64,000 bases of DNA, taken from assembly GCA_964635635.1 (NCBI GenBank), contig CAZWPE010000001.1, forward strand, positions 107,774 through 171,773, written 5' to 3'. The position numbers and the translations under genes are program-made. The first letter of the stretch is position 1, and each line of letters begins with the position of its first letter. This stretch comes from an uncultured Myxococcaceae bacterium. GTDB lineage: Bacteria > Myxococcota > UBA727 > JABDBI01. The notes below the pieces were generated by a model. The model was not told where the DNA came from, did not search any database, and was given only the letters and a program-made list of their open reading frames with translations. Of this stretch, positions 2,236-50,252 are shown in pieces.

Positions 2236-3429
2236 ATGGCTCAGGAGCTTTCTTGGAAGGATTCGTTTGTTCGCGACTATTATTTAAAGAACCGTCTATC
2301 TTTGGCGTTTTATTCGAACTGCACCTTTGCTTTTGCAGATGAGGCGGGCTGCCCGGACGCTTGCTCGCGGGCGGCAAAGCTGATCGCTGCCGTTCGCCGT
2401 CAAAGACCGCCGGTGATTACGAGCCGAATTCCCAAACTGGGACGTGATGATTTGCGACAGTCCAAGGGAGATTGGATCGTGGTGGCTTGTTTGGGGCAGT
2501 TCTATCTTTTAAAGCAGGGCGCCACTGAAAATACATTGCGTGCTTTGGTTCATGATGCGCGTTGTTCTGCTCCAGAGCCTGAAGTTGGCTGGTTAACCCT
2601 GCTCCCCAGAGATGCTTTCGCTGAAGTTTACCCGCTGCTCGGCAAGAATGTAGAGCTTATTCAAAATGCAGTTATTCTTGTGGCTCTTGATTTAGATGCG
2701 GCTCCCAAAAATGATAACGAGTTTGCTCATGCTTTAGCCAATGGGGGTTTGGGTAACCGATGGTTTGATTTGTCGCTGCAATTGATTGTCACTGGCAACG
2801 GTAGAGCAGGGGGGAATACGGAACACACTGTTTATGATTCTTTGCCAGCTGGTACTTATGTGAATTCACTGATGAGTGATGTTCCTGCCGCTAGCGAAGA
2901 CCAAGGGTATGAAAAAATTCGTTGGCCCAATGACCTTAAAATTAGCCAGGCCATTGCTGAGGCGAAAAATTTTGCAGAGGCAGAAGTTTCTAAGCGCGAA
3001 ATACATTGCGTTCGAACCAGGGCGTTTGAACGAGATGTTGATGTTCAAATGGCGATCCAGTTGGCAGCAAAAGAAATATTCGGAGCACCACAGGTCACCA
3101 GTGAAGCTCTTAGTATGGCGCATATGCCAGAGGGACGTTATGCAACCATATTTTTTGAGTCACCTGAAGATTTGCAAAATCACCGGCAAAGAATCAAATC
3201 AGCCAAACTAGGCGAACCAATTCAAGTATTACCATGTGAAATCGTCACTTCAAACGCAGGGCACCATGAACACATTCCACTCATAGGCTTCACAGATACT
3301 GACCCAAATATTGTTGGAATCTCATATATTATGAAGCCAACCGAGACAGTATTTCACATTAAAGCAGATGGAGTTCACAAAGAAAAAGCCCGGAAGTATG
3401 CTTACTTTTTGAACCAGCTGTTGAGGTAG
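2236..3429 (+). CDS. Choline/carnitine O-acyltransferase family protein (short form lacking about 150 N-terminal residues relative to eukaryotic CrAT)
   Basis: NRWFDLSLQLIVTGNGRAGGNTEHTVYDS matches the catalytic-His block NRW[FY]DKSxQ..EH of carnitine acyltransferases. Downstream blocks (DVQMAIQLA, TSEALSMAHMPEGR, IVGISY) align with the CrAT C-terminal half. Confidence 0.7.
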   Translation: MAQELSWKDSFVRDYYLKNRLSLAFYSNCTFAFADEAGCPDACSRAAKLIAAVRRQRPPVITSRIPKLGRDDLRQSKGDWIVVACLGQFYLLKQGATENTLRALVHDARCSAPEPEVGWLTLLPRDAFAEVYPLLGKNVELIQNAVILVALDLDAAPKNDNEFAHALANGGLGNRWFDLSLQLIVTGNGRAGGNTEHTVYDSLPAGTYVNSLMSDVPAASEDQGYEKIRWPNDLKISQAIAEAKNFAEAEVSKREIHCVRTRAFERDVDVQMAIQLAAKEIFGAPQVTSEALSMAHMPEGRYATIFFESPEDLQNHRQRIKSAKLGEPIQVLPCEIVTSNAGHHEHIPLIGFTDTDPNIVGISYIMKPTETVFHIKADGVHKEKARKYAYFLNQLLR

Positions 3430-4808
3430 TTATACAGTTGTTTGGAACTGTCAAACAACCATGCAGCACCTGGCATTTCTTCTCTCTCTAGAGAAATCTC
3501 TCTTTCAATGTCTTCAAGTTTACTTTGAATTGTTGGATCATTTGGGTGGAATTTCATTAGTAGATTGCGTGCCATGTCGACAGTCTTCCGTGATTCAGCA
3601 TCTAAATCTAAAAAACTCAAAAGAGTTTCTTTGACTTTTTCATCTCTAAAGAAATTAGCGGCTTCATTGCGCACATACTCAGACCTATCCTCTAGGCATT
3701 GAGCAATGGCTTGATGAATCTTGGGATCTTGAGGCTTGATGGCGGCTAAAGCCTGGATGGCGGCTTCTCTTGCTCTCGGATATTCATTGCTCAGGCATTG
3801 AGCAATGGCCTGATGAATGCCGGGAGCTTGAGGTTTGATAAAGGCTAAAGCCCGAACGGCGGCTTGCCTTGCCTCACGATTTTCACGCTGCAGCAATTGA
3901 ACAAGGAATTGATGAATCTCTTGATCTTGAAGTTTGATAGAGGTTAAAGCGTCAACGGCGGCTTGCCTTACAAACCAATTTTCATCCTCCAGGCATTGAG
4001 CAATGGCTTGACGAATCTTGGGAACTTGAGGCTTGATGGCGGCTAAAGCCTGGAGGGCGGCTTGCCTTACCTCCGCATATGGATTCTCCAGGTGTTGAGC
4101 GATGGCTTGATGAATCTTGGGATCTTGAGGGTTGATGGCTTTTAAAGCCTGAACGGCAGCTTGCCTTACACTCCAATCTTTATCCCTCAGGGATTCAACG
4201 ATGACTTGATGAATCTTGGGATCTTGAGGCTTAATCGCTTCGAAGGCACTGATGGTAGCTATGCGTATGTGTGGATTGAGATCATTCAAATACCGAGCCA
4301 TGACTTCAAGGATATCTGAATCGATTGGTTTAACCTTAGCTAATGTTTCTAGAACGTCAACTATGTCTCCTCCTGAAGAACGTTCCGATTGCAATACTTC
4401 TTTAACGAGAGTTATGACAGCAGTTTCGTTACCCTTTTCAGCTGCAGAGCACAATTCAGCAACAGCGTTATTTGGATTTTTGTTGAATAAGCGCTGCCAA
4501 GTGGCTTCTGAGTAGTGCTGAATCCCCTCTTGGAATCCTTTGGAGGTTTTAGCTTGAGTCAAGAGACTTTTTGAAGAGTCACCTGAAAATGCAGCGATAC
4601 GTGCAGTAAAAGCAGGATTTTTAAACAATTCGTTTTTAGGAGCCGCGATGGCTTCTTTCTTGGTTTCAGGTACACGCAAAGGGCTCAAAGCTGCTTCATC
4701 TCTGCTCTGTCGATATTGGTCAGGTAGTTGCTTATACTCATCGCCCTTGCGGTTTTGTTGCTGTTGGTTTTCTTGAACAGAAATTTTTCCAGTAATACCT
4801 ATCTTCAT
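3402..4808 (-). CDS. HEAT/PBS-lyase-like repeat protein
   Basis: About 6-7 tandem 33-aa units (PQDPKIHQAIAQCLE..VRQAAVQALAAIK) typical of HEAT-like repeats. Confidence 0.8.
   Translation of the reverse strand: MKIGITGKISVQENQQQQNRKGDEYKQLPDQYRQSRDEAALSPLRVPETKKEAIAAPKNELFKNPAFTARIAAFSGDSSKSLLTQAKTSKGFQEGIQHYSEATWQRLFNKNPNNAVAELCSAAEKGNETAVITLVKEVLQSERSSGGDIVDVLETLAKVKPIDSDILEVMARYLNDLNPHIRIATISAFEAIKPQDPKIHQVIVESLRDKDWSVRQAAVQALKAINPQDPKIHQAIAQHLENPYAEVRQAALQALAAIKPQVPKIRQAIAQCLEDENWFVRQAAVDALTSIKLQDQEIHQFLVQLLQRENREARQAAVRALAFIKPQAPGIHQAIAQCLSNEYPRAREAAIQALAAIKPQDPKIHQAIAQCLEDRSEYVRNEAANFFRDEKVKETLLSFLDLDAESRKTVDMARNLLMKFHPNDPTIQSKLEDIEREISLEREEMPGAAWLFDSSKQLYNYLNSWFKK
3690..4290 (-). repeat. 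Tandem 99-bp DNA repeats (about 6 copies) encoding the HEAT-like units
   Basis: Recurring caggcattgagcaatggcttgatgaatcttgggatcttgaggcttgatggcggctaaagcc.. with a period of about 99 bp. Confidence 0.75.
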
Positions 4809-4995: not shown

Positions 4996-6192
4996 TTATG
5001 AGCTGCGCTGTAGAGTGCTTCCAATGATTACAACAGGGCTTCCTTGTAGGAATTCAGTAAAATCCAGAAGCTTTGGCTCTGCCAGGTGTTTGAACTCAAA
5101 AATACACGTTTCTTCTGTTCCGAACCAATTTTCCTGATTTACCAACATAAGTTTGTAGTGGTTTTTTAGATTGCGAACTTCAACACGAAAGTGTTTTTCT
5201 TGGTGGACGATTTGAGTACCTAACACTGTTTTTAGCTTGTGTAGATTGTAGGCCAAACTCTTGGCGAAAATTTTAACTTGATTTGGGCGTTTGGCTTTAT
5301 TGAGTACAGGCGCAAAAGACATGTAGGGGTATGCGCTCGAATCAAAGCACTGAGAAAGACCTTTATAGTGAAGTCCTGATTCAGTTTCGAGTGGGGGTAA
5401 AAATCGCTTGATAATCTGCTTTTGGCGGTCTGTGAATTTTTCAAAGAGGTTTAAAACTTTCATATCATTGATGTGGTCACTCTTCAAATTTTTACACCCT
5501 TCGAAGATTTTTTTCGCAGTCATGCCATGTTTGTCTTTAAGGCAGACTAGAGCGGGTGTGATGAATGGATGCGTGAGAAATGCTTCTACCTTCTCTGAAC
5601 TGCGAATAAGAGAGGCAAGATGAAGTGCACTTTGTCCTTCATGATTGATAGCGTCAAAAATAGAAGCTGTCATGTTTGGATGATGAAGTATTTTGATGAT
5701 TTGATTTGCCGAGGCATGCAGCATGTTACGGTGTAAGATAGTTTGCCCAAATGAATCTCGCTTGAGCCAGACGTCTTTTGAAAATCCAAGTTCGTCAAGT
5801 GTTTCAATGTCAGAGCGATCTGCAACGATGTCCATTGCGGTTTGATTATTGCTGTCTTGGATACCAACCACATCTCCTGTGGCAAAAGGATGCTCAATGA
5901 GTGTTTTAAATATGGTGAGAGTAGGCAAAGCTGCTGCATAGTGAAGAACCGTTCGGTTATTGGTGTCTTTTTGGGCAAATGTTTTGGAATCAAAATGCAT
6001 CGAATCTAAAATCCGCTCCACAGGTTCAAGACGTCCTTTTGAGACAGCGATATGCAGGGGAGTTTGAAATGCGTCGTTCAACTGCGTGATTTCGTTCTTG
6101 TCAAAAGTTTCTTCATGCAGTGGTTCTGGCTCGACAATACGCCAGAAGTTAGTGGTTCGGTATCCGCAGCTTGGGAGTGGCGCTTGAAGCAT
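4996..6192 (-). CDS. Ankyrin-repeat protein with a C-terminal domain of unknown function
   Basis: Repeated ankyrin signatures TPLHIAV, TVLHYAA, TILHRNM and SALHLAS. Confidence 0.8.
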   Translation of the reverse strand: MLQAPLPSCGYRTTNFWRIVEPEPLHEETFDKNEITQLNDAFQTPLHIAVSKGRLEPVERILDSMHFDSKTFAQKDTNNRTVLHYAAALPTLTIFKTLIEHPFATGDVVGIQDSNNQTAMDIVADRSDIETLDELGFSKDVWLKRDSFGQTILHRNMLHASANQIIKILHHPNMTASIFDAINHEGQSALHLASLIRSSEKVEAFLTHPFITPALVCLKDKHGMTAKKIFEGCKNLKSDHINDMKVLNLFEKFTDRQKQIIKRFLPPLETESGLHYKGLSQCFDSSAYPYMSFAPVLNKAKRPNQVKIFAKSLAYNLHKLKTVLGTQIVHQEKHFRVEVRNLKNHYKLMLVNQENWFGTEETCIFEFKHLAEPKLLDFTEFLQGSPVVIIGSTLQRSS

Positions 6193-6425: not shown

Positions 6426-9364
6426 TGCTGCAAACTCAAATCGAAGCTTTTGGTCTTAAACTTTTTGAGGAAATGCGTGGTGAAAAACCAGGCATTTTTA
6501 ACAGCGACTACTGGCAAGGAAAATTGATGGACTGGGTCATGAAAGATCCCAGTTTTAAAATCGACATGTTTCGTTTTGTCGATGTTTTGCCTCAACTTGA
6601 AACTTCAGGCCAGATTGCTGCCCACGTTCGTGAGTACTTGCTGAAAGAAGGCCGTCAGCTCCCCGCAGTGATTAACGTAGCCCTTAAAGCGGCCGCCAGT
6701 GGTTTGACCGCTGGAATAGCTGCAACCAGCATTCGTAAAAATATCAGCGATATGGCTGAGCGATTTATTGTGGGGCGTGATGCCAAGAGTGCGCTGTCTG
6801 AACTGCAAGCTTTGCATAAACAAGGCATCGCTTTTACCGTCGATTTGCTCGGCGAGTATACCTTGAGTGATGCTGAGGCAGATGAGTACAAAAATCGCTA
6901 TCTAGATTTGATTGCCAATATTGCAGGTGAAGCTGCCAAGTGGAAACCGGATTCAGTCATCGACGCAGTCCCACGCGTGAATGTGTCTGTGAAGGTCAGT
7001 GCGCTTGACCCCCAAGTGAAGGCTGTTGACCCGAAAGGTTCGGTGGAACGTCTGAAACAACGCCTGAGACCTCTGTTTGAAATGGCCATGAAGAATGGCG
7101 TATTTTTGAACCTTGATCTTGAGCAGTGGGAAGTTCATGGCATTACTTATGACCTGTTTGAAGAACTTCTTTTGGAGCCAGAGTTTGCAAAATATCCCCA
7201 TTTTGGGATTGTGATTCAGGCTTATTTGAAAGACTCGCTGCGTGATGCAGAACGTCTTCTTGCTCTCGCCAAAAAACGAGGGACCCCAGTTGGTGTTCGT
7301 TTGGTTAAAGGCGCATACTGGGACTTCGAAGTCGTGAACGCGAAGCAAAAGGGTTTCGAATGCCCAGTGTTTACGCAAAAAGCTGACTCTGATGTGAACT
7401 ACGAGCGCATCAGCAAGTTTTTGTTGGATCACATTGAGCATTTTAGGCCAGCATTTGGAAGTCACAATCTGCGTTCCATTAGTCACGCGATTGTTTATGC
7501 GGATAGTAAAAAAATCCCAGCGACGGCTTATGAAATTCAGATGCTTTATGGAATGGCAGAGCCAGAACGTAAGATTTTACGTTCTCGTGGAAACCTGGTT
7601 CGTGTTTATGCCCCGATAGGAGAGTTGCTTCCGGGTATGGCGTATTTGGTTCGGCGTTTGCTTGAAAACACGTCGAACTCTGGATTTTTGAAGCTTTCAC
7701 ATCAAGATGATGTGGATCCGAAGTTACTTTTGGTTGAGCCTGTTTCTCTCCCTCTCCCCTTGAGGGAGAGGGCTGGGGTGAGGGGTGAGTTTGAAAACTG
7801 CCCTTGGCTAGACTTTACGCGTGAAGAATCTCGAACAGCTTTTGCCAAAGCCATTGAAGCCTGGAAGCCTAAATTTCCAGTCACAGTCCCAGTGGTTATT
7901 GCCGGTGAAAAACAGGTCGGTGAGTCCGTGTTTGAACGCGTGACTCCCAACGATGGGCAAACTTTAGTGGCTAAAGTAGAGCTGGCCAGCAAAGCACAGG
8001 CTGAAAAAGCGATTCAAATTGCCACGCGTGCTTACCCTGCATGGCGAGATGGAGCTTTGGCTGAACGTGTAGAACGTTTAAACAAACTGGCTGATATATT
8101 GGAACGCGACCGTTTTGAATTAGCTGCGCTCATGTCCCATGAAGTGGCTAAGCCGTGGATTGAAGCGGATGCAGATGTCGGCGAAGCGGTTGATTTCTGC
8201 CGCTATTATGCTCAGCAGGCGCTCACAACACTTGCGCCCAGAAAACAAGGCAGTCTTTGGGGCGAAGATAATATTTTAAGCTATGAGGGCAGGGGGCCAA
8301 CACTTGTGATTGCTCCTTGGAATTTTCCCTTGGCCATTTTGTGCGGCATGGCAGCAGCAGCTCTTGTTGCTGGTAACTCTGTGATCTTAAAACCAGCAGA
8401 AACATCCAGTTTAACAGCAAAGATGCTGTTCGACCGTATGCTCGAAGCAGGTATTCCGAGTGACGTTGTCCAGTTCTTGCCGGGCCGTGGTTCTGAAGTA
8501 GGGGCGTATTTAGTTGAGCATCCACAAATTGCGCAAATTGCATTTACGGGCAGCAAGGAAGTTGGCCTGCAAATTATCGAAAAAGCGGCGCGAGTTCAGC
8601 ATGGCCAAGCACAAGTTAAGCGTGTGGTCTGCGAAATGGGCGGTAAAAATGCGATTGTGATAGACGACGATGCAGACTTAGATGAAGCAGCATTAGGTGT
8701 TATCCACAGTGCGTTTGGTTATGCAGGTCAAAAGTGTTCGGCAGCTTCGCGAATCATTGTCCATGCCAATGTTTATGACAGGTTTAAAAACCGGTTGGTT
8801 GAAGCTTGCAAGAGTCTATGCATTGCGCCTGCCACGAAACCTGGCTGTGGTGTTCCTCCGGTGGTTGATGCCAAATCCCAAAATCGCTTGCTCACTGAGA
8901 TTGAGTTGGCTGCTCGTGAACACAAATTGCTAATAAGTATCCCCCCTTTGCAAAAGGGGGGTCAGGGGGGATTTTTTGTCCCTGTAACGCTATTTGAAGT
9001 CCAAAACTCAAAATGCCGATTGATGCAAACAGAACTCTTTGGTCCAGTAATTGCGATTGCCAAGGCCAAGGACTTTGAAGAAGCCATTCAAATCGCAAAC
9101 GATACTGAGTTTGCTTTGACGGGTGCTGTTTATTCACGCAGCCCTAAGAATCTTGAATATGCACGAAAGGCCTTTAAGGTTGGCAATCTGTATCTTAACC
9201 GTGGAAGTACGGGTGCCATGGTTCATCGACAGCCATTTGGTGGCTTCAAAATGAGCGGCATTGGAACCAAAGCGGGTGGGCCAGATTACTTGATGCACTT
9301 TGTGGACCCCAGAGTGACCACTGAGAATACTTTGAGGCGTGGATTTACGCCGGATTTGGAATGA
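6425..9364 (+). CDS. putA: Bifunctional proline dehydrogenase / delta-1-pyrroline-5-carboxylate dehydrogenase PutA (no N-terminal DNA-binding domain)
   Basis: N-terminal PRODH TIM-barrel motifs followed by an ALDH domain (VCEMGGKNA, catalytic QKCSAASR, EEFGP-like ELFGPV). Confidence 0.9.
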   Translation: MLQTQIEAFGLKLFEEMRGEKPGIFNSDYWQGKLMDWVMKDPSFKIDMFRFVDVLPQLETSGQIAAHVREYLLKEGRQLPAVINVALKAAASGLTAGIAATSIRKNISDMAERFIVGRDAKSALSELQALHKQGIAFTVDLLGEYTLSDAEADEYKNRYLDLIANIAGEAAKWKPDSVIDAVPRVNVSVKVSALDPQVKAVDPKGSVERLKQRLRPLFEMAMKNGVFLNLDLEQWEVHGITYDLFEELLLEPEFAKYPHFGIVIQAYLKDSLRDAERLLALAKKRGTPVGVRLVKGAYWDFEVVNAKQKGFECPVFTQKADSDVNYERISKFLLDHIEHFRPAFGSHNLRSISHAIVYADSKKIPATAYEIQMLYGMAEPERKILRSRGNLVRVYAPIGELLPGMAYLVRRLLENTSNSGFLKLSHQDDVDPKLLLVEPVSLPLPLRERAGVRGEFENCPWLDFTREESRTAFAKAIEAWKPKFPVTVPVVIAGEKQVGESVFERVTPNDGQTLVAKVELASKAQAEKAIQIATRAYPAWRDGALAERVERLNKLADILERDRFELAALMSHEVAKPWIEADADVGEAVDFCRYYAQQALTTLAPRKQGSLWGEDNILSYEGRGPTLVIAPWNFPLAILCGMAAAALVAGNSVILKPAETSSLTAKMLFDRMLEAGIPSDVVQFLPGRGSEVGAYLVEHPQIAQIAFTGSKEVGLQIIEKAARVQHGQAQVKRVVCEMGGKNAIVIDDDADLDEAALGVIHSAFGYAGQKCSAASRIIVHANVYDRFKNRLVEACKSLCIAPATKPGCGVPPVVDAKSQNRLLTEIELAAREHKLLISIPPLQKGGQGGFFVPVTLFEVQNSKCRLMQTELFGPVIAIAKAKDFEEAIQIANDTEFALTGAVYSRSPKNLEYARKAFKVGNLYLNRGSTGAMVHRQPFGGFKMSGIGTKAGGPDYLMHFVDPRVTTENTLRRGFTPDLE
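7746..7789. repeat. Family-1 palindromic element copy (CCCTCTCCCCTTGAGGGAGAGGGCTGGGGTGAGGGGT), in-frame in putA
   Basis: 38-bp stretch identical except for one base to 26520-26557. Confidence 0.75.
8937..8978. repeat. Family-2 palindromic element copy (ATCCCCCCTTTGCAAAAGGGGGGTCAGGGGGGATTTTTTG), in-frame in the putA ALDH domain
   Basis: About 41-bp motif shared with 44469-44507. Confidence 0.75.
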
Positions 9365-10332
9365 GCGAGTCCGAACACCTCACCCAGTTTCAGCCAAGGC
9401 TGAAACAGCCCTCTCCCCTGAAGCGGAGAGGGCAAGTCTTGGCTGGCCTTGTGGGTATTTCTCTGGTTGCATACATGGTGGGCCATATTGGTTTGGACCA
9501 AGTGCTTCATGCCCTAAGAGGCGCAGCTTATTATTTCCCTGCTATCTTATTGTGCGAGTTCTTTTTTTGGTTTTTTGGGACTCTTTCGCAGCGTGCACTC
9601 TATGGCGTTGATGCTAAAAAGATTCCGTGGGGCACGATTTGGCGTTCAGGTTTTACGGCTTACGCCATCATGGGTCTGATTCCAATGGGCCGTATTGTCG
9701 CGGAGTCAGCTCGGGCAGTAGCGTTTGCGCCTTATGTGGGCAAACCCAAGGCCGCTGTGGTAGCGGTTCAGGTTCAGATTTTGGCTTTGTGTGTGACGGC
9801 TTTAGTGGCTGGTGTATCTGGTTTATTTATTGTGACTCGTGCCTGGGGAAGCCCTGCTGCATGGCTTGCCATTGCCAATGCAGGCGGGGCATTGGTTTTG
9901 GCTGTTTTAGCAGCCATGGCAACCAAACACCTAAGATTGGGTCAAAAGCTGGGGTTCTTACTGCCCAGGATTCAGCTCTTTGGACAGGAGTTTGATGCCC
10001 ACTTTGCCGGTTCGGCAGTTTTGCCGCGTGCAGCCTTTGGTTATGAGTTGCTCTGCCGTTTAAGTCAGATTGTCCAAAATGGTTTGCTGGTCATGGCTGT
10101 AGGTGGGGCTTTGGGTATTTCGAATGCCTTTTGTTCTGAGGGCTTGCATCTGATTGGTGCGACTCTGGGTGATCTGGTTCCGGGCCAGTGGGGCGTAACT
10201 GAACTGGTTTATGGTGAAACAGGCTCTATTCTAGGTCTTGGAGACCAAGGAGCCTTAGGGATTGCCTTGCAGGCGCATTTGGCCCAGCTGTTTTGGGTGT
10301 TTGTGACTTTGTTAATGAAAGTGTTGTTGTAA
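9361..10332 (+). CDS. UPF0104 / lysylphosphatidylglycerol-synthase-TM-like integral membrane protein
   Basis: Multiple TM helices throughout. ATGA start overlap with the putA stop. Confidence 0.6.
   Translation: MSESEHLTQFQPRLKQPSPLKRRGQVLAGLVGISLVAYMVGHIGLDQVLHALRGAAYYFPAILLCEFFFWFFGTLSQRALYGVDAKKIPWGTIWRSGFTAYAIMGLIPMGRIVAESARAVAFAPYVGKPKAAVVAVQVQILALCVTALVAGVSGLFIVTRAWGSPAAWLAIANAGGALVLAVLAAMATKHLRLGQKLGFLLPRIQLFGQEFDAHFAGSAVLPRAAFGYELLCRLSQIVQNGLLVMAVGGALGISNAFCSEGLHLIGATLGDLVPGQWGVTELVYGETGSILGLGDQGALGIALQAHLAQLFWVFVTLLMKVLL
9388..9436. repeat. Family-1-like palindromic element (GCCCTCTCC-cctgaagc-GGAGAGGGC) plus adjacent hairpin tttcagccaaggctgaaa, in-frame at the N-terminus of the UPF0104 gene
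   Basis: Inverted repeats seen directly. Confidence 0.6.
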
Positions 10333-10397
10333 ATTTGAAAAACAAATAAGATTTATTTATTATATAAAAAGTTTCAGTGTCTGGTGAGGGGGATCCA

Positions 10398-12899
10398 ATG
10401 AGTCAAAGATTAGGTTTCAGTCCGGCTGAATTCAGAGAACAAGGTGACTACGAGCAAGAGGGTGAGAAACGTGTTTCGGGAAAGGATGCGGGTGTTGATG
10501 TTTATGAGGCGCCCTCTTTGCTGGAACAAGTTTCTAGAGGCTTAACTCCTCAAATTATAGAGAGTTATTTGAAAGAACCGGATGGAGAAGAAAAAACTAA
10601 GCTTCTACAAGCAATGGGCCAAAAAATAAAACCTGAGACATTGTCTAAACTGCCGCCAGAATCAGTGTCGAAACTTCATGAAATTTTTCAGAATAAGGGC
10701 AAACTCGAGGTAAGATGGGCGATCGAGGATGCGCAGTGGGAAAATGAAAAAATGTCGAGGTTTGTGATAGCCCCATACCGACGTAAACTCGATTTTGCAG
10801 ATTTAGAAGAGTATCTAAAAAAAGGAGCGAGTATTAACTTTCGACTGCCCGAAAATAATGCAAACGCAAACGACAACAGTGGCAATTTTCCGGGGATGAA
10901 CCTGATTCAGATGGCATTATCTCTAAATGATATGGATACTGTGAGTAAGCTATTTGCGAGAGGTGCTCAATTTACAGAAGAAGATGCTAATTATATGTAT
11001 CCCCAAGAATATTGGTTGGGCAATGTAAGTTTGGCCCATAGACTCTTGGAGTCTGGTTACACAGATGCTTTTATTTGGCTGATTGATCATGGGGCTAACC
11101 CTAATCAAATCATTTCAAAATATGGGGACCCTTTTGATGCATTGAGCCTAGCGCAAGCAGCTTTAAAAAAAGGCGATGTGATGGCATTTGAAAAACTCAT
11201 TGAAAAAGGTGCTGATATCAACCTGCCATTTCCCCGTACGAGTACAACAGGGGAATATGCGAATAAAACTCTTGCTCAGGTTGTCCTAGAGAGGGGGGAT
11301 ACAAACGCCCTTAGGCTTCTCCTGGAAAAAGGTGTTTCTCCTAACCAAACTTTTCCTTCTGCTTGGAATTCTGAGGCTACCTACAAAGGCATGACTCTTT
11401 TGCAGGTGGCTATGATACTAGGGCATACAGATATCGCTATGCTACTGCTCGATCATGGAGCCGATCCAGATCGAGTCTTCCCAGGGACCATTGATGAACA
11501 CCGTGATTATGCTGGCAGGACACCGATTCAGATTGCTCTGAGGCAGAACAATACGGGGCTGATTGAGAAACTCATCGAGCGTGGTGCATCAAGCAAGGGT
11601 TTAACGAGTCCGTTGACTTTTAAAGCGTTGCGTTTACCACGAGAAGATTTGGAATCGATTAAGCCATTAGAAAATGGCGATAGTATTGAACAAATTATCG
11701 AAAAATCAAAAGATAAAAAATGGATTCAAGAATTCTTTGGAGACCCAAAACCTGCCAACGAAGGAGACCAAAAACCTGTCATTGAATATGTGGACGACCA
11801 TCATTCGAAAAACGGACATACTCGCGAAGACATCATTAACGGTCTTCAGGTTTTTTTCGAAAGAATTCAGAAAAGAGAGGCTGTTCTGGGGACGCCTCCG
11901 TCAAATCAACTTAAAGAGTTAAATGCGTATTATGACAACATGTTCCATCGCTTGCAGCATATTTTTTCGTTCTTAGAACAGAAAGAGATTGCTCAAGATA
12001 TCAAACGGGCTGCTCTCGATATGATTTATGGGGGTTCTTTGGCTTGCGGTACGGCTTGGTTCAATGAGGTTAAGAGTGCCTATGAACTTCTTAAATCGCA
12101 GATTAAAGCACCCCAACAAAGTTCTGCCACAGCAGCAAGCGCTGCAGATGAAAGTTTTCAAAGTGAGTATGAGTCGATCATTGAGCAGCGCTTGTATGAA
12201 TTTAGAAGGCGTTGTTTTGAATCTGCTCTGCCCAACAACAATACGCACACCTATAACGCCTACATGCGCGAGCTGGGGGTTGAGTTTGGGGTGGCGGGAA
12301 AAAATTCAAGCTATGACGATCCAACCGTTGTTCCTATTTCAGAGTACGAAAAAGCTGTTTTCAGACACAAGGTCGAGTCTCTTTATGAGCCAAAACTTAT
12401 CATTGATTTTATATATAAAATTTCCAAAGATAAAACACAAATAGGTGAGGGGATTATCCCTGGTCTGCTTGCTGACTATGGACCTAAAGTAAGCCAAACT
12501 CAAGCTAATAGGTATTTTGTGTTGGAAAATAAGAAGGAAAAAGATGAGCTCAGTGGCGAAGAGTTGAGGGAATATGAGGAACTTACAAAAATTATCTCTC
12601 AGGAAGATGATTATACGGAGATGACGCTTGGAAAAGAATACGAGCCAACCCGAGAAGGCGTGGAATATTTGCTTAAAGCTTTAGGCATATTACGAATTAG
12701 AGACCTGAAAGGGATAAAGCTCGATCCATGGAGCCAATTCTTAATAAGACGTAAACAAAAGGAGCTCGAGTCAGCAGAGGAAGGCTCCGAAAGGCAAAGA
12801 GACCTAAAAGAATGGCTTTCAGAAGCTCAGGCTGAGCAAATTCAAGAAGTTAAGCAAACAAAGAAGGCTTCATCAGCCACAGCTGCCGCTAGTTCTTAA
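10398..12899 (+). CDS. Large ankyrin-repeat protein with an acidic, coiled-coil-rich C-terminus (effector-like); ORF opens at GTG 10377, ATG 10398 preferred
   Basis: At least five ankyrin units (GMNLIQMALSLND.., DALSLAQAALKKGD.., KTLAQVVLERGDTNALRLLLEKGVSPN, MTLLQVAMILGHTDIAMLLLDHGADPD, RTPIQIALRQNNTGLIEKLIERGA). GAGGGGGA lies upstream of the ATG. Confidence 0.75.
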   Translation: MSQRLGFSPAEFREQGDYEQEGEKRVSGKDAGVDVYEAPSLLEQVSRGLTPQIIESYLKEPDGEEKTKLLQAMGQKIKPETLSKLPPESVSKLHEIFQNKGKLEVRWAIEDAQWENEKMSRFVIAPYRRKLDFADLEEYLKKGASINFRLPENNANANDNSGNFPGMNLIQMALSLNDMDTVSKLFARGAQFTEEDANYMYPQEYWLGNVSLAHRLLESGYTDAFIWLIDHGANPNQIISKYGDPFDALSLAQAALKKGDVMAFEKLIEKGADINLPFPRTSTTGEYANKTLAQVVLERGDTNALRLLLEKGVSPNQTFPSAWNSEATYKGMTLLQVAMILGHTDIAMLLLDHGADPDRVFPGTIDEHRDYAGRTPIQIALRQNNTGLIEKLIERGASSKGLTSPLTFKALRLPREDLESIKPLENGDSIEQIIEKSKDKKWIQEFFGDPKPANEGDQKPVIEYVDDHHSKNGHTREDIINGLQVFFERIQKREAVLGTPPSNQLKELNAYYDNMFHRLQHIFSFLEQKEIAQDIKRAALDMIYGGSLACGTAWFNEVKSAYELLKSQIKAPQQSSATAASAADESFQSEYESIIEQRLYEFRRRCFESALPNNNTHTYNAYMRELGVEFGVAGKNSSYDDPTVVPISEYEKAVFRHKVESLYEPKLIIDFIYKISKDKTQIGEGIIPGLLADYGPKVSQTQANRYFVLENKKEKDELSGEELREYEELTKIISQEDDYTEMTLGKEYEPTREGVEYLLKALGILRIRDLKGIKLDPWSQFLIRRKQKELESAEEGSERQRDLKEWLSEAQAEQIQEVKQTKKASSATAAASS

Positions 12900-12988
12900 T
12901 GGAAATGGGTTGTTTTTGTGGCTTTGTTACTAAATCTGTTGTCTACCCGACCGCAAAGTGCTACGGTCCGGCCGCAATAGGAGTTTTT

Positions 12989-13207
12989 ATGGCAGTTTGC
13001 ACCCTTACCGGAAAATCTTGGATGAATGGCAACCGAGTGTCCCATTCAAACATCAAAACCAAACGTAAAGTCAGAGCAAACGTTCAATCGAAGCGTATCT
13101 TCGACGTTGAAACTGGCCGCATGGTTCGCGTCAAGCTTTCAACCCGCGCTCTTCGTACTTTGAACAAAAAGTCACTTTCCGCTTGTCTTGCTGAAATTTG
13201 CGCTTAG
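12989..13207 (+). CDS. rpmB: 50S ribosomal protein L28
   Basis: MAVCTLTGK..GNRVSHSNIKTKRKVRANVQ matches the L28 family. The ORF extends upstream to 12899 but an ATG with aggag RBS is at 12989. Confidence 0.85.
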   Translation: MAVCTLTGKSWMNGNRVSHSNIKTKRKVRANVQSKRIFDVETGRMVRVKLSTRALRTLNKKSLSACLAEICA

Positions 13208-13235
13208 ATTCTCCTCCTAACAAGGAGAATCTAAA
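13205..13235 (+). promoter_or_regulatory. CIRCE-like perfect inverted repeat TTAGATTCTCC-N9-GGAGAATCTAA spanning the rpmB stop to the groES ATG (contains the groES Shine-Dalgarno)
   Basis: 11-bp arms with a 9-bp spacer, the same architecture as the CIRCE/HrcA operator TTAGCACTC-N9-GAGTGCTAA, sharing TTAG..CTAA ends. The rpmB stop codon TAG lies inside the 5' arm. Confidence 0.5.
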
Positions 13236-13522
13236 TGAAGTTCAAGCCCTTAAATGATCGCGTCCTGGTAAAGCGCCTGGACGCTGACGAAAAAACCGCT
13301 GGCGGTCTTTTTATCCCCGATAATGCCAAAGAAAAACCCATGCAAGGCCTTGTGGTTGCTTGTGGGGAAGGCAAAGTTCTTGATAATGGCACAGTAAGAC
13401 CCCTCGATGTCAAAGCTGGCCAAACTGTATTCTTCCGAAAATATGCTGGAACTGAAGTCACCGTTGATGGCGTAGAGCACATGCTCATGCGTGAAGAAGA
13501 AATTTTAGCAATTCTTGAGTAA
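13235..13522 (+). CDS. groES: Co-chaperonin GroES
   Basis: [38 protein letters not shown]. Confidence 0.95.
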
Positions 13523-13525
13523 TAG

Positions 13526-15172
<1,647 letters not shown>

Positions 15173-18834: not shown

Positions 18835-20547
18835 TCACTTCAGATCAAAGAAGTCAACGTAGTAGCCAGGTGCTTCTCCAGTATTCTTTCCAGGATTCGA
18901 ATAGCAAGTAAAGGTCGAGGTTTTATCGTCAAAAGGAAATGTGTAGGCTGTAGGACACGCCTGCTTCATGAATACCAACCAGGGTTGGATATTCGTTGCC
19001 CAAGTAGAATTAGTAGCACTGCAATTGCCTTGAGACGCAAGTACATTGGGCCAGGTGCTTAGATATGGATTGCCAGGAAATGTTGGGCAACCGCAATCGC
19101 ACGAAGTGCCGGATTGATAACACGAGTTAGGCGCAGTGCCTGTGCAGCCAAACATGTCTGAATAAGTGTAGGATGTTCCTGAGATGCTGCCGCACTGAAG
19201 TGGGGATATGTTTGATGTTCCAGGGTTTGTGCCGCATATCTGGTCAGCGCTCCAATAGGCAATAAACGTGCCACACACCTTGGCAACGGTTGAAATGCCA
19301 GTGTTTTGCGCAAGACCGCAGAGTTGTCCGCTAGCGCAATCTGAGTCTTTGCTGCATGAGCAGTATTGATTACCTGCTCCAGTAGGTGAGCCGGAAATAC
19401 AGCTTTTGTTGATGGTAGGTAAAACTTGTCGCAGCAACGTGCTTTGATTTTTGGGGGTGATGCCTGGAATCGAAGGTGTAACACTCCAGCTACAGGCACG
19501 CAGTACACCTAAAGAGTCAGCTTGTGTGAGAGCGCCCGGCGTTGCGCAGAAATAAGGGTCAGTTTGACTCTTGGTTGTTGTGGTTGAGTCAGGTTCCATG
19601 GCAATGCCAATGTTCATGCCATTGATAATACTGACGTCATAATAATCGAGGTTTGGTTGAGGGGCTGTGAATGTGAATTCTGCCAAGCTTGCAGGAGGAA
19701 CTCCACCGGTTCCAGCGTTGCAGCTTCCATCTTGTGGAGCACAGGAGCCATTGTTTGGACAGTCTTCTGCATAAGTGTGACCAGATAGAGGGGTATATCC
19801 TGGGCCGCAGTTAGTTTGAGTGCAAGCTTGACCTGAAATCTGACATTTGAAACCACCTCCATTGTTAATGCATTGATCTCCGATGGTTGTACAAGTAGAA
19901 CATCCAGCGCTATTCGTGGAGCATTCACCTGAGGCACAGTTTTGGCCATTGGAGTCGCAACCAAAGCGTGCAAACAAATTTCCACTCCATTGAACCGAGC
20001 TTAGAGCGTTTGTTTGTCTACCGTGTTTTGAAGAGGCTCCTAAGGGAGCAGGAAAACAAAGTTTCAGTGATTGAGTTGGTGAGAGTTTAGGGGTGTTGGC
20101 GCCAACCATTCTGGGTTGCTTCCAGAAACACTGAAATCCATTGCCCGCTACTGTATTGGTTGCGCATACGCCCAGTGTTCCACAACTCTGTGATGCTGCG
20201 CTGCAGCCGCAGACACCCGTTGGCCCGACCGCATCAGAGCCGGTAATTATACAGTTGTTGCCCATGTTGGCACAGTCCGTATTTTTTCGGCAGAAAAATG
20301 AACCGCTGGTCAGACCTACCCATACAGTTTGCGATGAATTGTTGGTGACAATCATGGGCCTTTCGCCAGTAGAACAAAAATCAAGCACGGGCCGATTGTC
20401 TGGTGGATTGGGATTATTTGGATTATTGGGACCACTTGGGTTATTCGGCCCACTGGGATTGCTAGGCACATTTGGATCATTGCTCTTCGAGCAACCAAGC
20501 CCAACAAGAATCAAAACAACCCAAAACAAACGCATAAAAACCCCCAT
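18835..20547 (-). CDS. Large cysteine-rich lipoprotein with a thaumatin-like C-terminal domain
   Basis: Lipobox LVGLGC. Pro/Asn-rich linker. Thaumatin family signature blocks YDVSIINGMNIGIAMEP and CPTAYTFPFDDKTSTFTC (compare CPDAYSYPQDDxTSTFTC). Confidence 0.65.
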   Translation of the reverse strand: MGVFMRLFWVVLILVGLGCSKSNDPNVPSNPSGPNNPSGPNNPNNPNPPDNRPVLDFCSTGERPMIVTNNSSQTVWVGLTSGSFFCRKNTDCANMGNNCIITGSDAVGPTGVCGCSAASQSCGTLGVCATNTVAGNGFQCFWKQPRMVGANTPKLSPTQSLKLCFPAPLGASSKHGRQTNALSSVQWSGNLFARFGCDSNGQNCASGECSTNSAGCSTCTTIGDQCINNGGGFKCQISGQACTQTNCGPGYTPLSGHTYAEDCPNNGSCAPQDGSCNAGTGGVPPASLAEFTFTAPQPNLDYYDVSIINGMNIGIAMEPDSTTTTKSQTDPYFCATPGALTQADSLGVLRACSWSVTPSIPGITPKNQSTLLRQVLPTINKSCISGSPTGAGNQYCSCSKDSDCASGQLCGLAQNTGISTVAKVCGTFIAYWSADQICGTNPGTSNISPLQCGSISGTSYTYSDMFGCTGTAPNSCYQSGTSCDCGCPTFPGNPYLSTWPNVLASQGNCSATNSTWATNIQPWLVFMKQACPTAYTFPFDDKTSTFTCYSNPGKNTGEAPGYYVDFFDLK

Positions 20548-26171: not shown

Positions 26172-26747
26172 ATGCATATGTATGGCGGCGGCGTAAATGT
26201 AAAATTGTCCAGAGATGTGATGGGGATTCAAATCCCTGATGGTAATCCTGTGACCTTGGAACAAGGCCATGAAGTTTACATTATGCAAGTTCTGGGCGGC
26301 ATGTTTACGGTTGAAACAGAATGGGGTTATTTGGCTCGGGTAGACGGTAAAGATGCTGATGCTTTAGGACAAGAAATCCCGCCGGAACGCCAAAAGCCAG
26401 ATTGGTCAAAGTTTACGACACTTGAAGATGCTGCGTGGGCCCAGCTTAGAACTTGTTATGATCCTGAAATCCCAGTCAATATTGTTGAATTAGGGCTTAT
26501 CTATAAGCTACAGCTGGCTCCCTCTCCCCTTGAGGGAGAGGGCCGGGGTGAGGGGTCCGTGTTGCACGTCGATATGACTTTAACTGCACCCGGCTGTGGA
26601 ATGGGTGAGGTTTTGCGCAATGATATTGAAACCAAATTGCTGGATATCCCTGGGGTAAAGGCTGTGGTCATCGACCTGACCTTTGACCCGCCCTGGAACT
26701 CAGAAATGATGTCTGATGCAGCTAGATTGCAGCTGGGGATGATGTAA
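26172..26747 (+). CDS. SufT-like DUF59 (MIP18 family) protein with an about 90-aa N-terminal extension and an in-frame palindromic-element insert
   Basis: C-terminal TAPGCGMG and DUF59 blocks. Located at the end of the suf cluster. Confidence 0.65.
   Translation: MHMYGGGVNVKLSRDVMGIQIPDGNPVTLEQGHEVYIMQVLGGMFTVETEWGYLARVDGKDADALGQEIPPERQKPDWSKFTTLEDAAWAQLRTCYDPEIPVNIVELGLIYKLQLAPSPLEGEGRGEGSVLHVDMTLTAPGCGMGEVLRNDIETKLLDIPGVKAVVIDLTFDPPWNSEMMSDAARLQLGMM
26517..26558. repeat. Family-1 palindromic element copy, in-frame in the SufT-like gene (encodes SPLEGEGRGEGS)
   Basis: Near-identical to the putA copy at 7746-7789. Confidence 0.75.
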
Positions 26748-29374: not shown

Positions 29375-29403
29375 TTTAAACCTACGCGAGGCAATGGCCC
29401 TCT

Positions 29404-29452
29404 CCACGAGTGGAGAGGGTGCTGAGCGTAGCGAAGCGGGTGAGGGATGAAA
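29404..29452. repeat. Family-1 palindromic element copy, intergenic upstream of dnaG
   Basis: CCCTCTCCAC-ga-GTGGAGAGGG followed by a ..GGGTGAGGG tail. Confidence 0.7.
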
Positions 29453-47603: not shown

Positions 47604-48752
47604 TCAGTTCCCACAAGCCTTAAACCCATCTATGAAACCAATACGATTATTTTTTCGATCGAAATGGATGTATTGGTTTTCCATCACGGCTTGACCTAGA
47701 ATAACGAAATCGCTGCCTGTAGGTGCAAAACCGAATACGCAGAGGTTTTCTTGTGTGCTCTTCATGTAAGATTCTGGGCGAATGGTTAGTTGGAGACCAC
47801 CTTCAAAGGTGAGGATGATATTTGGAAGATTGGCGAGTCTCACACTGCTGCAAACGAGTTCTTTCTCGCCTGCCCAAAATTTTTCGTCTGTGGGTAGATT
47901 GCTATTTGCCGCTTGAATTTGTTTCACCATGGCTGAGTGCATAGCAGATGGGATCGCGCTTACAGTTGTTCCACTGTCTAGGATGGTGCAAGTTCTAGAA
48001 CTTTCAGCTTGAGCACATGGGGTTCCACCATTTGGGTACGGATATTCTGGGAAATCTCCAAGTTTGTTATCCGAATTCACGCTACCGAGATAAGCGGACG
48101 TCGCATTTAAAACATACCAACTTTTCTCTTTAACTGGAGTATAATTGGCGTTTGTAAAGCTACCTAGGGATGAGTTGGTGCCGCCAAAAATAATTTGGCT
48201 GTTACCATCGTGTGCAACGCCACATAAGAGTGTGCTGAATTCATTACTCATGCCAGTTGTGGTAGTTAGATCTGCAAAGAAAGTATGATCCTGATTACCT
48301 TGAGCGACACCCTCATAGGCAAGACCCATGATTTGAGGAGTACATGCACTGCCTGTGCATGACTGGATGCTTCCAATGTAGTAGTTTGGAATCCCTGCAC
48401 CGCAACTGAAATCAACAAAGCCGATGTAATTTTGAACGCTGATTGTTGTTTGACCGCCATAAAATATTGGAAAGGGTGAACCTGTGAGTTCTAGATTGTT
48501 GGTGTTAAATCCGCTGCTTGTATTATCAATGACTAAATTAGAGCTTCCTGTGTCTGCTACTAATTCCATTGTCTGGCCATTGACCACTAGTGAAATGTGA
48601 TATTCGAGCGTAGAGCCGACATTTTGTCTCAGTGCGCTTCTGTTTGTTACAAATACATGCTTGAGGCCGTAGGTTGGGTTACTGCAGGGTGGGTTTGACT
48701 TGCTGCAGGCTATAAACAAGATAATCGAAAAGAGTAAACTAGAAAGTTTCAT
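47604..48752 (-). CDS. Pepsin-like (family A1) aspartic protease lipoprotein
   Basis: Lipobox LFIACS. Two catalytic motifs VADTGSSNLVI (pepsin DTGSSNLWV) and ILDSGTTVSAIP (pepsin DTGTS). Confidence 0.75.
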   Translation of the reverse strand: MKLSSLLFSIILFIACSKSNPPCSNPTYGLKHVFVTNRSALRQNVGSTLEYHISLVVNGQTMELVADTGSSNLVIDNTSSGFNTNNLELTGSPFPIFYGGQTTISVQNYIGFVDFSCGAGIPNYYIGSIQSCTGSACTPQIMGLAYEGVAQGNQDHTFFADLTTTTGMSNEFSTLLCGVAHDGNSQIIFGGTNSSLGSFTNANYTPVKEKSWYVLNATSAYLGSVNSDNKLGDFPEYPYPNGGTPCAQAESSRTCTILDSGTTVSAIPSAMHSAMVKQIQAANSNLPTDEKFWAGEKELVCSSVRLANLPNIILTFEGGLQLTIRPESYMKSTQENLCVFGFAPTGSDFVILGQAVMENQYIHFDRKNNRIGFIDGFKACGN

Positions 48753-50209: not shown

Positions 50210-50252
50210 CCTATAACCCTCTCCCTCTGGGAGAGGGCAGGGAGAGGGATAG
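50210..50252. repeat. Family-1-like GA/CT palindromic element, intergenic, immediately upstream of a terminator
   Basis: CCCTCTCCCTCTGGGAGAGGGCAGGGAGAGGG. Confidence 0.6.

Follow-up and report, generated by a model that had tools for sequence, protein, structure and literature searches.

Introduction

Translational coupling by unfolding is established for rpmI-rplT (at +52 nt), MS2 coat-lysis and f1 genes VII-IX (PMC12548453). In these systems co-oriented neighbouring genes have the downstream ribosome-binding site (RBS) silenced in a helix, the other strand of which is covered by ribosomes completing the upstream gene; in E. coli rpmI-rplT the upstream gene codes for a ribosomal protein, and this pair is the nearest precedent for the locus described below.

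The HrcA operator CIRCE has the consensus TTAGCACTC-N9-GAGTGCTAA, from which natural sites usually depart at zero to three positions. The helix of an RNA thermometer is labile, owing to mismatches, G-U or non-canonical pairs, and opens at about 37–45 °C. A fourU thermometer showed a Tm of 41.1 °C, which one stabilising mutation raised to 53.5 °C, giving what was termed a temperature-stable RNA (PMC2887971). An RNA thermometer upstream of Salmonella groES has been reported (Cimdins et al. 2013, as cited in PMC4166951 and PMC5406781), and the corresponding E. coli hairpin is likewise reported to act as one; in both, the groES SD is paired with a CU-rich anti-Shine-Dalgarno (anti-SD) strand lying a few bases upstream. 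In the E. coli groS leader the sequence is CUUUCUC-aaa-GGAGAG; the hairpin, an 8-bp stem with three G-U pairs, belongs to a 5′ UTR that follows a sigma-32 promoter.

Here we describe a hairpin at the rpmB-groES junction of the window, the term used for the whole 64-kb stretch of DNA that was analysed. It shares with the coupled pairs the co-orientation of the two genes and the placing of the downstream RBS in a helix that a ribosome could cover, and with the groES leaders the general layout, a CU-rich strand opposite the groES SD. Unlike the helices of rpmI-rplT, MS2 and f1, which are formed by long-range pairing, the helix here is a 12-bp hairpin, compact and local, beginning at the stop codon, and unlike the E. 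coli groES hairpin it has 12 perfect pairs, is intercistronic and includes the stop codon of the upstream gene. The downstream gene codes for a chaperonin and not, as in rpmI-rplT, for a ribosomal protein, and coupling at this locus is a prediction.

Results and Discussion

Anatomy of the rpmB-groES Hairpin

The repeat finder showed a perfect inverted repeat at 13204-13234, between the rpmB stop and the groES start, with 12-bp arms around a 7-nt loop (Table 1); the junction reads GCGCT-TAG-ATTCTCCTCCTAACAAGGAGAATCTAA-ATG. The rpmB stop codon TAG (13205-13207) occupies positions 2-4 of the 5′ arm, the anti-SD strand is UUCUCCU, and the 3′ arm is followed without any intervening base by the groES ATG. 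An earlier note on this DNA, made from the letters alone, had placed the repeat at 13205-13235 as 11-bp arms around nine bases, ending 1 nt before the ATG. The repeat does exist, but its span is 13204-13234, the pairing reaches one pair further inward (12 bp/7-nt loop/12 bp), and the arm ends at 13234 with the ATG beginning at 13235. In agreement with that note, the repeat spans the junction from the rpmB stop to the groES start, its 5′ arm holds the stop codon and its 3′ arm the groES SD, which is predicted to be sequestered with a probability of unpaired GGAG of about 1e-4.

Table 1. Positions of the features described in the text (numbering of the window).
Feature	Position	Strand	Remarks
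Putative sigma-70-type promoter	12939..12967	+	-35 TTGTCT 12939-12944, 17-nt spacer, extended -10 TGcTACGGT 12959-12967; inferred from the motif conserved in relatives
rpmB (ribosomal protein L28, 72 aa)	12989..13207	+	Pfam Ribosomal_L28, E = 2e-21; 222 homologues found
Hairpin 5′ arm TTAGATTCTCCT	13204..13215	+	anti-SD strand; holds rpmB stop codon
Hairpin loop CCTAACA	13216..13222	+	differs in L167 (6 nt, GTCACA)
Hairpin 3′ arm AGGAGAATCTAA	13223..13234	+	holds groES SD GGAGAA 13224-13229; directly adjoins ATG
groES (Cpn10, 95 aa)	13235..13522	+	Pfam Cpn10, E = 1e-32
groEL (545 aa)	13535..15172	+	own SD in 12-nt spacer after groES
Dispersed palindrome family	1035-1059, 7746-7790, 9408-9433, 26518-26560, 29397-29420, 50216-50250		six copies
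Eukaryote-like protein ORFs	2236-3429, 3402-4808(-), 4996-6192(-), 10377-12899, 18835-20547(-), 47604-48752(-)		

No other perfect 12-bp inverted repeat with a loop of 3-12 nt occurs in the 64-kb window, and 30 Markov-shuffled windows contained none. A pattern search for the repeat likewise gave one match in the window and none in 100 shuffles, about zero being expected by chance. The z-score of the RNA fold was −5.6 when the hairpin was folded by itself and −5.1 in its 71-nt context. The predicted free energy is −14.8 kcal/mol, and all 12 pairs are Watson-Crick, without mismatches, bulges or G-U pairs. An intrinsic terminator was rejected, as no U-tract follows the stem and the terminator scan was empty.

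Transcription of rpmB, groES and groEL

The genes rpmB and groES lie on the same strand, 27 nt apart. Scans of 12600-13600 for promoters of E. coli consensus and for terminators returned no sites; this agrees with the earlier statement that the spacer between the two genes is too short for a promoter. Upstream of rpmB, about 30 nt before its SD, seven related lineages have in common the motif CTTGCT, 16-17 nt, TGCTAnnnT. The window aligns with the -10 part of this motif and has TTGTCT 17 nt further upstream, which together make a putative promoter that scores below the threshold of the E. coli-consensus scan. From the promoter-like motif upstream of rpmB and the promoter-free 27-nt spacer we infer that rpmB, groES and groEL are transcribed as one mRNA starting upstream of rpmB.

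In the alignment with the same seven lineages, the window carries about 25 extra bases between the position of the -35-like CTTGCT and TGCTAnnnT (12915-12960), and a different hexamer, TTGTCT, now stands at promoter spacing upstream of rpmB.

The 3′ end of rpmB contains a sigma-32-like motif, TTGAAC-N13-CCGCTTGT, the synonymous positions of which vary in relatives (TTG to TTA or CTG; TCC to GCG). A promoter may lie within rpmB, in its 3′ part, and rpmB ribosomes would never open the hairpin on transcripts that begin at such a site.

Distribution of the Junction among Relatives

The L28 homologues led to contigs of an uncultured lineage, labelled at NCBI as Myxococcota or Deltaproteobacteria metagenome-assembled genomes. 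An identical 1.5-kb contig is present in SRR16481186. The rpmB-groES junction was found only among close L28 relatives, of roughly at least 77% identity (Table 2), and was not present in the lineages P0011 (L28 76%) and P0012 (L28 79%). No L28 gene was found upstream of groEL in a contig scan of 80 GroEL-anchored loci, which covers distant relatives only (identity of 75% or less), and no groES followed rpmB in 80 metagenomic L28 loci among the matches listed, a search made with over-general patterns.

Table 2. The rpmB-groES junction and predicted accessibility of the groES SD in the window and related lineages.
Lineage	L28 identity to window	rpmB-groES spacer	P(unpaired GGAG)	Shuffles occluding as well
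Window		27 nt	1e-4 (37 °C)	2/300
L081	identical	27 nt		
L167	97%	26 nt	1e-4	0/300
L082	83%	27 nt	6e-4	2/300
L168	81%	27 nt	0.19	not significant
L179	81%	27 nt	0.013	23/300, marginal
L169-171	78%	28 nt	0.014 (L169)	20/300 (L169), marginal
L084-86	91%	15 nt	0.26 (L084)	not significant (L084)
L083	88%	81 nt	0.13	not significant
L180	77%	118 nt, terminator-like hairpin	0.49	not significant

In L084 (2145-2660), L085 and L086 groES follows rpmB without groEL, the next gene lying on the opposite strand, so that in these contigs a stand-alone groES stands behind rpmB. The spacer of L180 (2726-2843) contains a strong hairpin followed by a U-run (AAAAACCCAUU...AAUGGGUUUUUUU), preceded by TTGTCT-N16-TATAAA, and groES may there have its own promoter and a structured leader.

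Conservation of the Stem

Among the lineages compared, L167 alone has the same stem as the window, and reads TAG-ATTCTCCT-GTCACA-AGGAGAATCT-TT-ATG. The two sequences agree fully over the inner 10 bp of each arm; the outer two pairs are lost in L167 (CTAA to CTTT), and the loop differs in both sequence and length, the centre being 1 nt shorter. Between the same two loci, 64 of 145 four-fold sites differ (44%). Against this divergence, the probability of finding all 20 bases of the 10-bp core unchanged is about 9e-6, or 5e-4 when the SD bases are left out, and the drift of the loop beside an unchanged core indicates purifying selection on the stem and not on the loop.

No compensatory double substitutions occur within the 12-bp stem, because the sole relative sharing it has identical arms. 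Selection on RNA and on DNA can therefore be told apart only by the change in loop length and by the differing solutions of other lineages. The shorter centre and the loss of CTAA argue against a protein operator of fixed spacing and fit an RNA helix.

Four-fold divergence between the window and L167 (17-235 for rpmB) was 0.24 in rpmB and 0.51-0.52 in groES and groEL. Near the 3′ end of rpmB, the codons GCT TGT CTY do not vary among the seven lineages that have the residues A-C-L in common. The low divergence of rpmB and these fixed codons may mark an additional constraint on the rpmB mRNA, either codon bias or pairing with the groES SD region.

Predicted Occlusion of the groES Shine-Dalgarno Sequence

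The probability of an unpaired GGAG was computed over -80 to +33 around each groES start and compared with 300 shuffles of the upstream sequence (Table 2). In 59 control groES genes from other lineages the median was 0.30, and one of them fell below 0.02; three of the four short-spacer lineages (26-28 nt) did so, with related pairs counted once (Fisher p = 4e-4). Predicted occlusion of the SD is thus enriched in the short-spacer group, and it is reached through different sequences. In the window and L167 the SD partner is the strand immediately after the rpmB stop codon, in L082 the helix has different outer pairs (GUC-UCUCC ... GGAGA-uc-GAC), and in L169 and L179 the partner is formed by the rpmB codons UUGUCUCU. 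In all five, a ribosome completing rpmB could reach the partner strand. Some members of the clade lack such occlusion, the SDs of L168, L083, L084 and L180 being accessible.

Proposed Coupling of groES to rpmB Translation

The anatomy of the hairpin is best accommodated by translational coupling, a reading absent from the earlier note, in which unfolding of the RNA by ribosomes translating rpmB would allow groES to be translated; we give it about an even chance. The hairpin would lie within a polycistronic rpmB-groES-groEL mRNA. In the free mRNA the 12-bp stem would lock the groES SD against UUCUCCU, which begins at the rpmB stop, so that no ribosome would start on groES independently.

From toeprinting and studies of the ribosomal helicase, the helicase point of a ribosome, counted from the P site, is placed at about +11 and the leading edge at about +15/16. 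A ribosome ending rpmB, with TAG in the A site and codon 13202-13204 in the P site, would have its helicase point at about 13212 and its leading edge at about 13216, and would cover roughly 13202-13216. With the whole 5′ arm inside this ribosome the stem would be open, leaving the SD and AUG, 16-30 nt downstream, single-stranded. Translation of groES could then begin with a fresh 30S subunit at the exposed site, or the ribosome that had just terminated could re-initiate 27 nt further on. If rpmB is not translated, the −14.8 kcal/mol lock should silence groES, and GroES output would follow the translation of L28 and not a dedicated heat-shock operator.

At the junction a predicted structure covers the downstream RBS, and its partner strand falls within the footprint of the terminating ribosome, as given by the established geometry. 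The spacing of +27 nt is within the range in which unfolding or re-initiation works in known coupled pairs. Against the coupling reading counts a library screen, summarised in a review, in which structure right after the upstream stop codon reduced the efficiency of coupling (PMC12548453).

A more specific and rather tentative proposal is that the chaperonin genes moved behind rpmB and lost a promoter and CIRCE of their own, GroES being hard-wired to L28 translation, and so to ribosome synthesis and growth rate, through a near-absolute SD lock for which a ribosome translating rpmB would be the only key. If so, a core chaperonin would be controlled by growth and not by stress. The mechanism itself is already textbook knowledge while the operon context is unusual, so that the value of the locus is that of an example and not of a new principle. 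Should coupling hold, the junction would provide a clean natural on/off intercistronic lock, a perfect 12-bp helix of which one arm contains the stop codon and the other the SD together with the edge of the start codon. Such a case would further mean that a lineage can take groES off HrcA/CIRCE or sigma-32 control and tie it to the expression of a ribosomal protein.

Other Readings of the Hairpin

The SD-sequestering RNA thermometer proposed in the earlier note would melt on heat shock and raise groES translation independently of rpmB. The downstream gene is indeed a heat-shock gene with its SD predicted to be occluded by a local anti-SD hairpin, in the layout of the E. coli groS leader. A thermometer, however, requires a helix opening at about 37–45 °C, and the predicted energies are −14.8 kcal/mol for the window and −14.9 for L167, compared with −7.6 for L082 and −7.2 for E. 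coli groS. The window hairpin is thus twice as stable as that of E. coli and, by nearest-neighbour prediction, contains no labile pairs. For the SD, the predicted probability of being unpaired does not exceed 3e-4 at 25-45 °C and is still under 0.02 at 80 °C; taken by itself, the hairpin is predicted to open at about 85-90 °C. An Rfam search of 12700-13700 with E up to 10 gave nothing beyond noise and no match to the thermometer families included in Rfam, and in the whole 64-kb window the only match was a tRNA. Considering the perfect stem, with a predicted melting near 90 °C, a heat sensor is unlikely at this junction. The weaker hairpin of L082, close in predicted energy to that of E. coli, could plausibly be thermoresponsive.

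About as improbable is an element of mRNA stability or processing, which would mark or protect the 3′ end of rpmB or the 5′ end of groESL after endonucleolytic cleavage. The levels of L28 and chaperonin mRNA would in this way be set apart, with SD occlusion as a side effect. In other operons, hairpins between cistrons are known to stabilise the upstream segment, and the stable, conserved stem-loop without a U-tract, exactly between two cistrons, is consistent with such a role. Such a role does not account, however, for the use of the SD as part of the stem or for the stem's ending precisely at the ATG, nor for the occlusion of the same SD in other lineages by unrelated partner strands, some of them inside rpmB.

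That the palindrome has no function, having arisen by chance or recently, for instance as what was left over when a rearrangement brought groES behind rpmB, is improbable. The junction does appear young, judging from its restriction to L28 relatives of roughly at least 77% identity and its absence from P0011 and P0012. The spacers also vary widely, from 15 to 118 nt, and several lineages lack any hairpin. Nevertheless, the chance expectation for the hairpin is about zero, and the stem is unchanged beside a drifting loop in the face of 44% synonymous divergence.

Comparison with CIRCE

Least probable of all, and by a long way short of coupling, is a DNA operator at which a dimeric repressor, a divergent HrcA or another protein, would bind the palindrome and control groES transcription.

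The earlier note had described the repeat as CIRCE-like with a divergent core. Its terminal likeness stands, in that an inverted repeat adjoins groES with arms that start with TTAG and end with CTAA, and the palindrome is perfect and has arms conserved in L167. The reading as an HrcA operator does not: in the N9 register 14 of the 18 CIRCE positions are mismatched and four match, the GCACTC/GAGTGC core being absent, and the register that keeps TTAG/CTAA has 10 mismatches in 18 and a spacer of 13 instead of 9. No promoter adjoins the palindrome in the scan of 12600-13600. In L167 the change of CTAA to CTTT and the centre shortened by 1 bp shift the spacing of the half-sites, and no palindrome of this sequence is present in L082, L168, L169, L179 or L084.

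Further copies of the repeat, sought as a check on the HrcA reading, were not found in the 64-kb window, nor was CIRCE at up to three mismatches, including upstream of the clpP-clpX operon. Among the ORFs of the window there is no hrcA, dnaK, grpE or rpoH; clpP-clpX is present without such a repeat. As a positive control, 80 groEL loci of other lineages, including Myxococcota and other former Deltaproteobacteria, were searched in the same terms, and 48 had CIRCE with up to three mismatches just upstream of groES, all of them keeping the GCACTC-N9-GAGTGC core. CIRCE was accordingly rejected for the hairpin on sequence, spacing, context and conservation, and is largely refuted; the resemblance is superficial. 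For annotation, a TTAG...CTAA palindrome near groES need not be CIRCE.

A near-canonical CIRCE, TAAGCACTC-cagtggatt-GAGTGTTTA, was observed in L082 at 667-693, about 80 nt upstream of a gene for a Lon-family protease (lon). The groES of L082 is without CIRCE, and by our estimate about 0.03 such matches are expected by chance in the 100 kb of clade sequence. The site upstream of lon suggests that the HrcA of this clade, if present, probably recognises the ordinary motif.

Other Features of the Window

The window contains six dispersed palindromes of the form CCCTCTCC(C/A)-N3-8-(G/T)GGAGAGGG, sometimes followed by C[TC]GGGGTGAGGGGT (Table 1). Four of the six lie in frame inside ORFs, for an E1 dehydrogenase, PutA, an LPG-synthase-like protein and an FeS-assembly protein, where they encode stretches such as LPLPLRERAGVRGE. 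The palindrome is situated between Pfam domains in the E1 dehydrogenase and PutA, before the domain in the LPG-synthase-like ORF, and inside the matched domain in the FeS-assembly ORF. These elements resemble the in-frame palindromic elements of Rickettsia. A link between them and the rpmB-groES hairpin was rejected, and the hairpin is treated as unrelated because only the TCTCC/GGAGA core is common to both.

Eukaryote-like proteins are clustered in the window, the genome of which is labelled Myxococcota and has about 45% GC. They comprise a carnitine/choline acyltransferase, a protein with HEAT repeats, two ankyrin-repeat proteins, a thaumatin-domain protein and a eukaryotic-type aspartyl protease, and may indicate that the organism lives in association with eukaryotic cells. 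In the P0012 lineage, too, ankyrin genes are found near rpmB.
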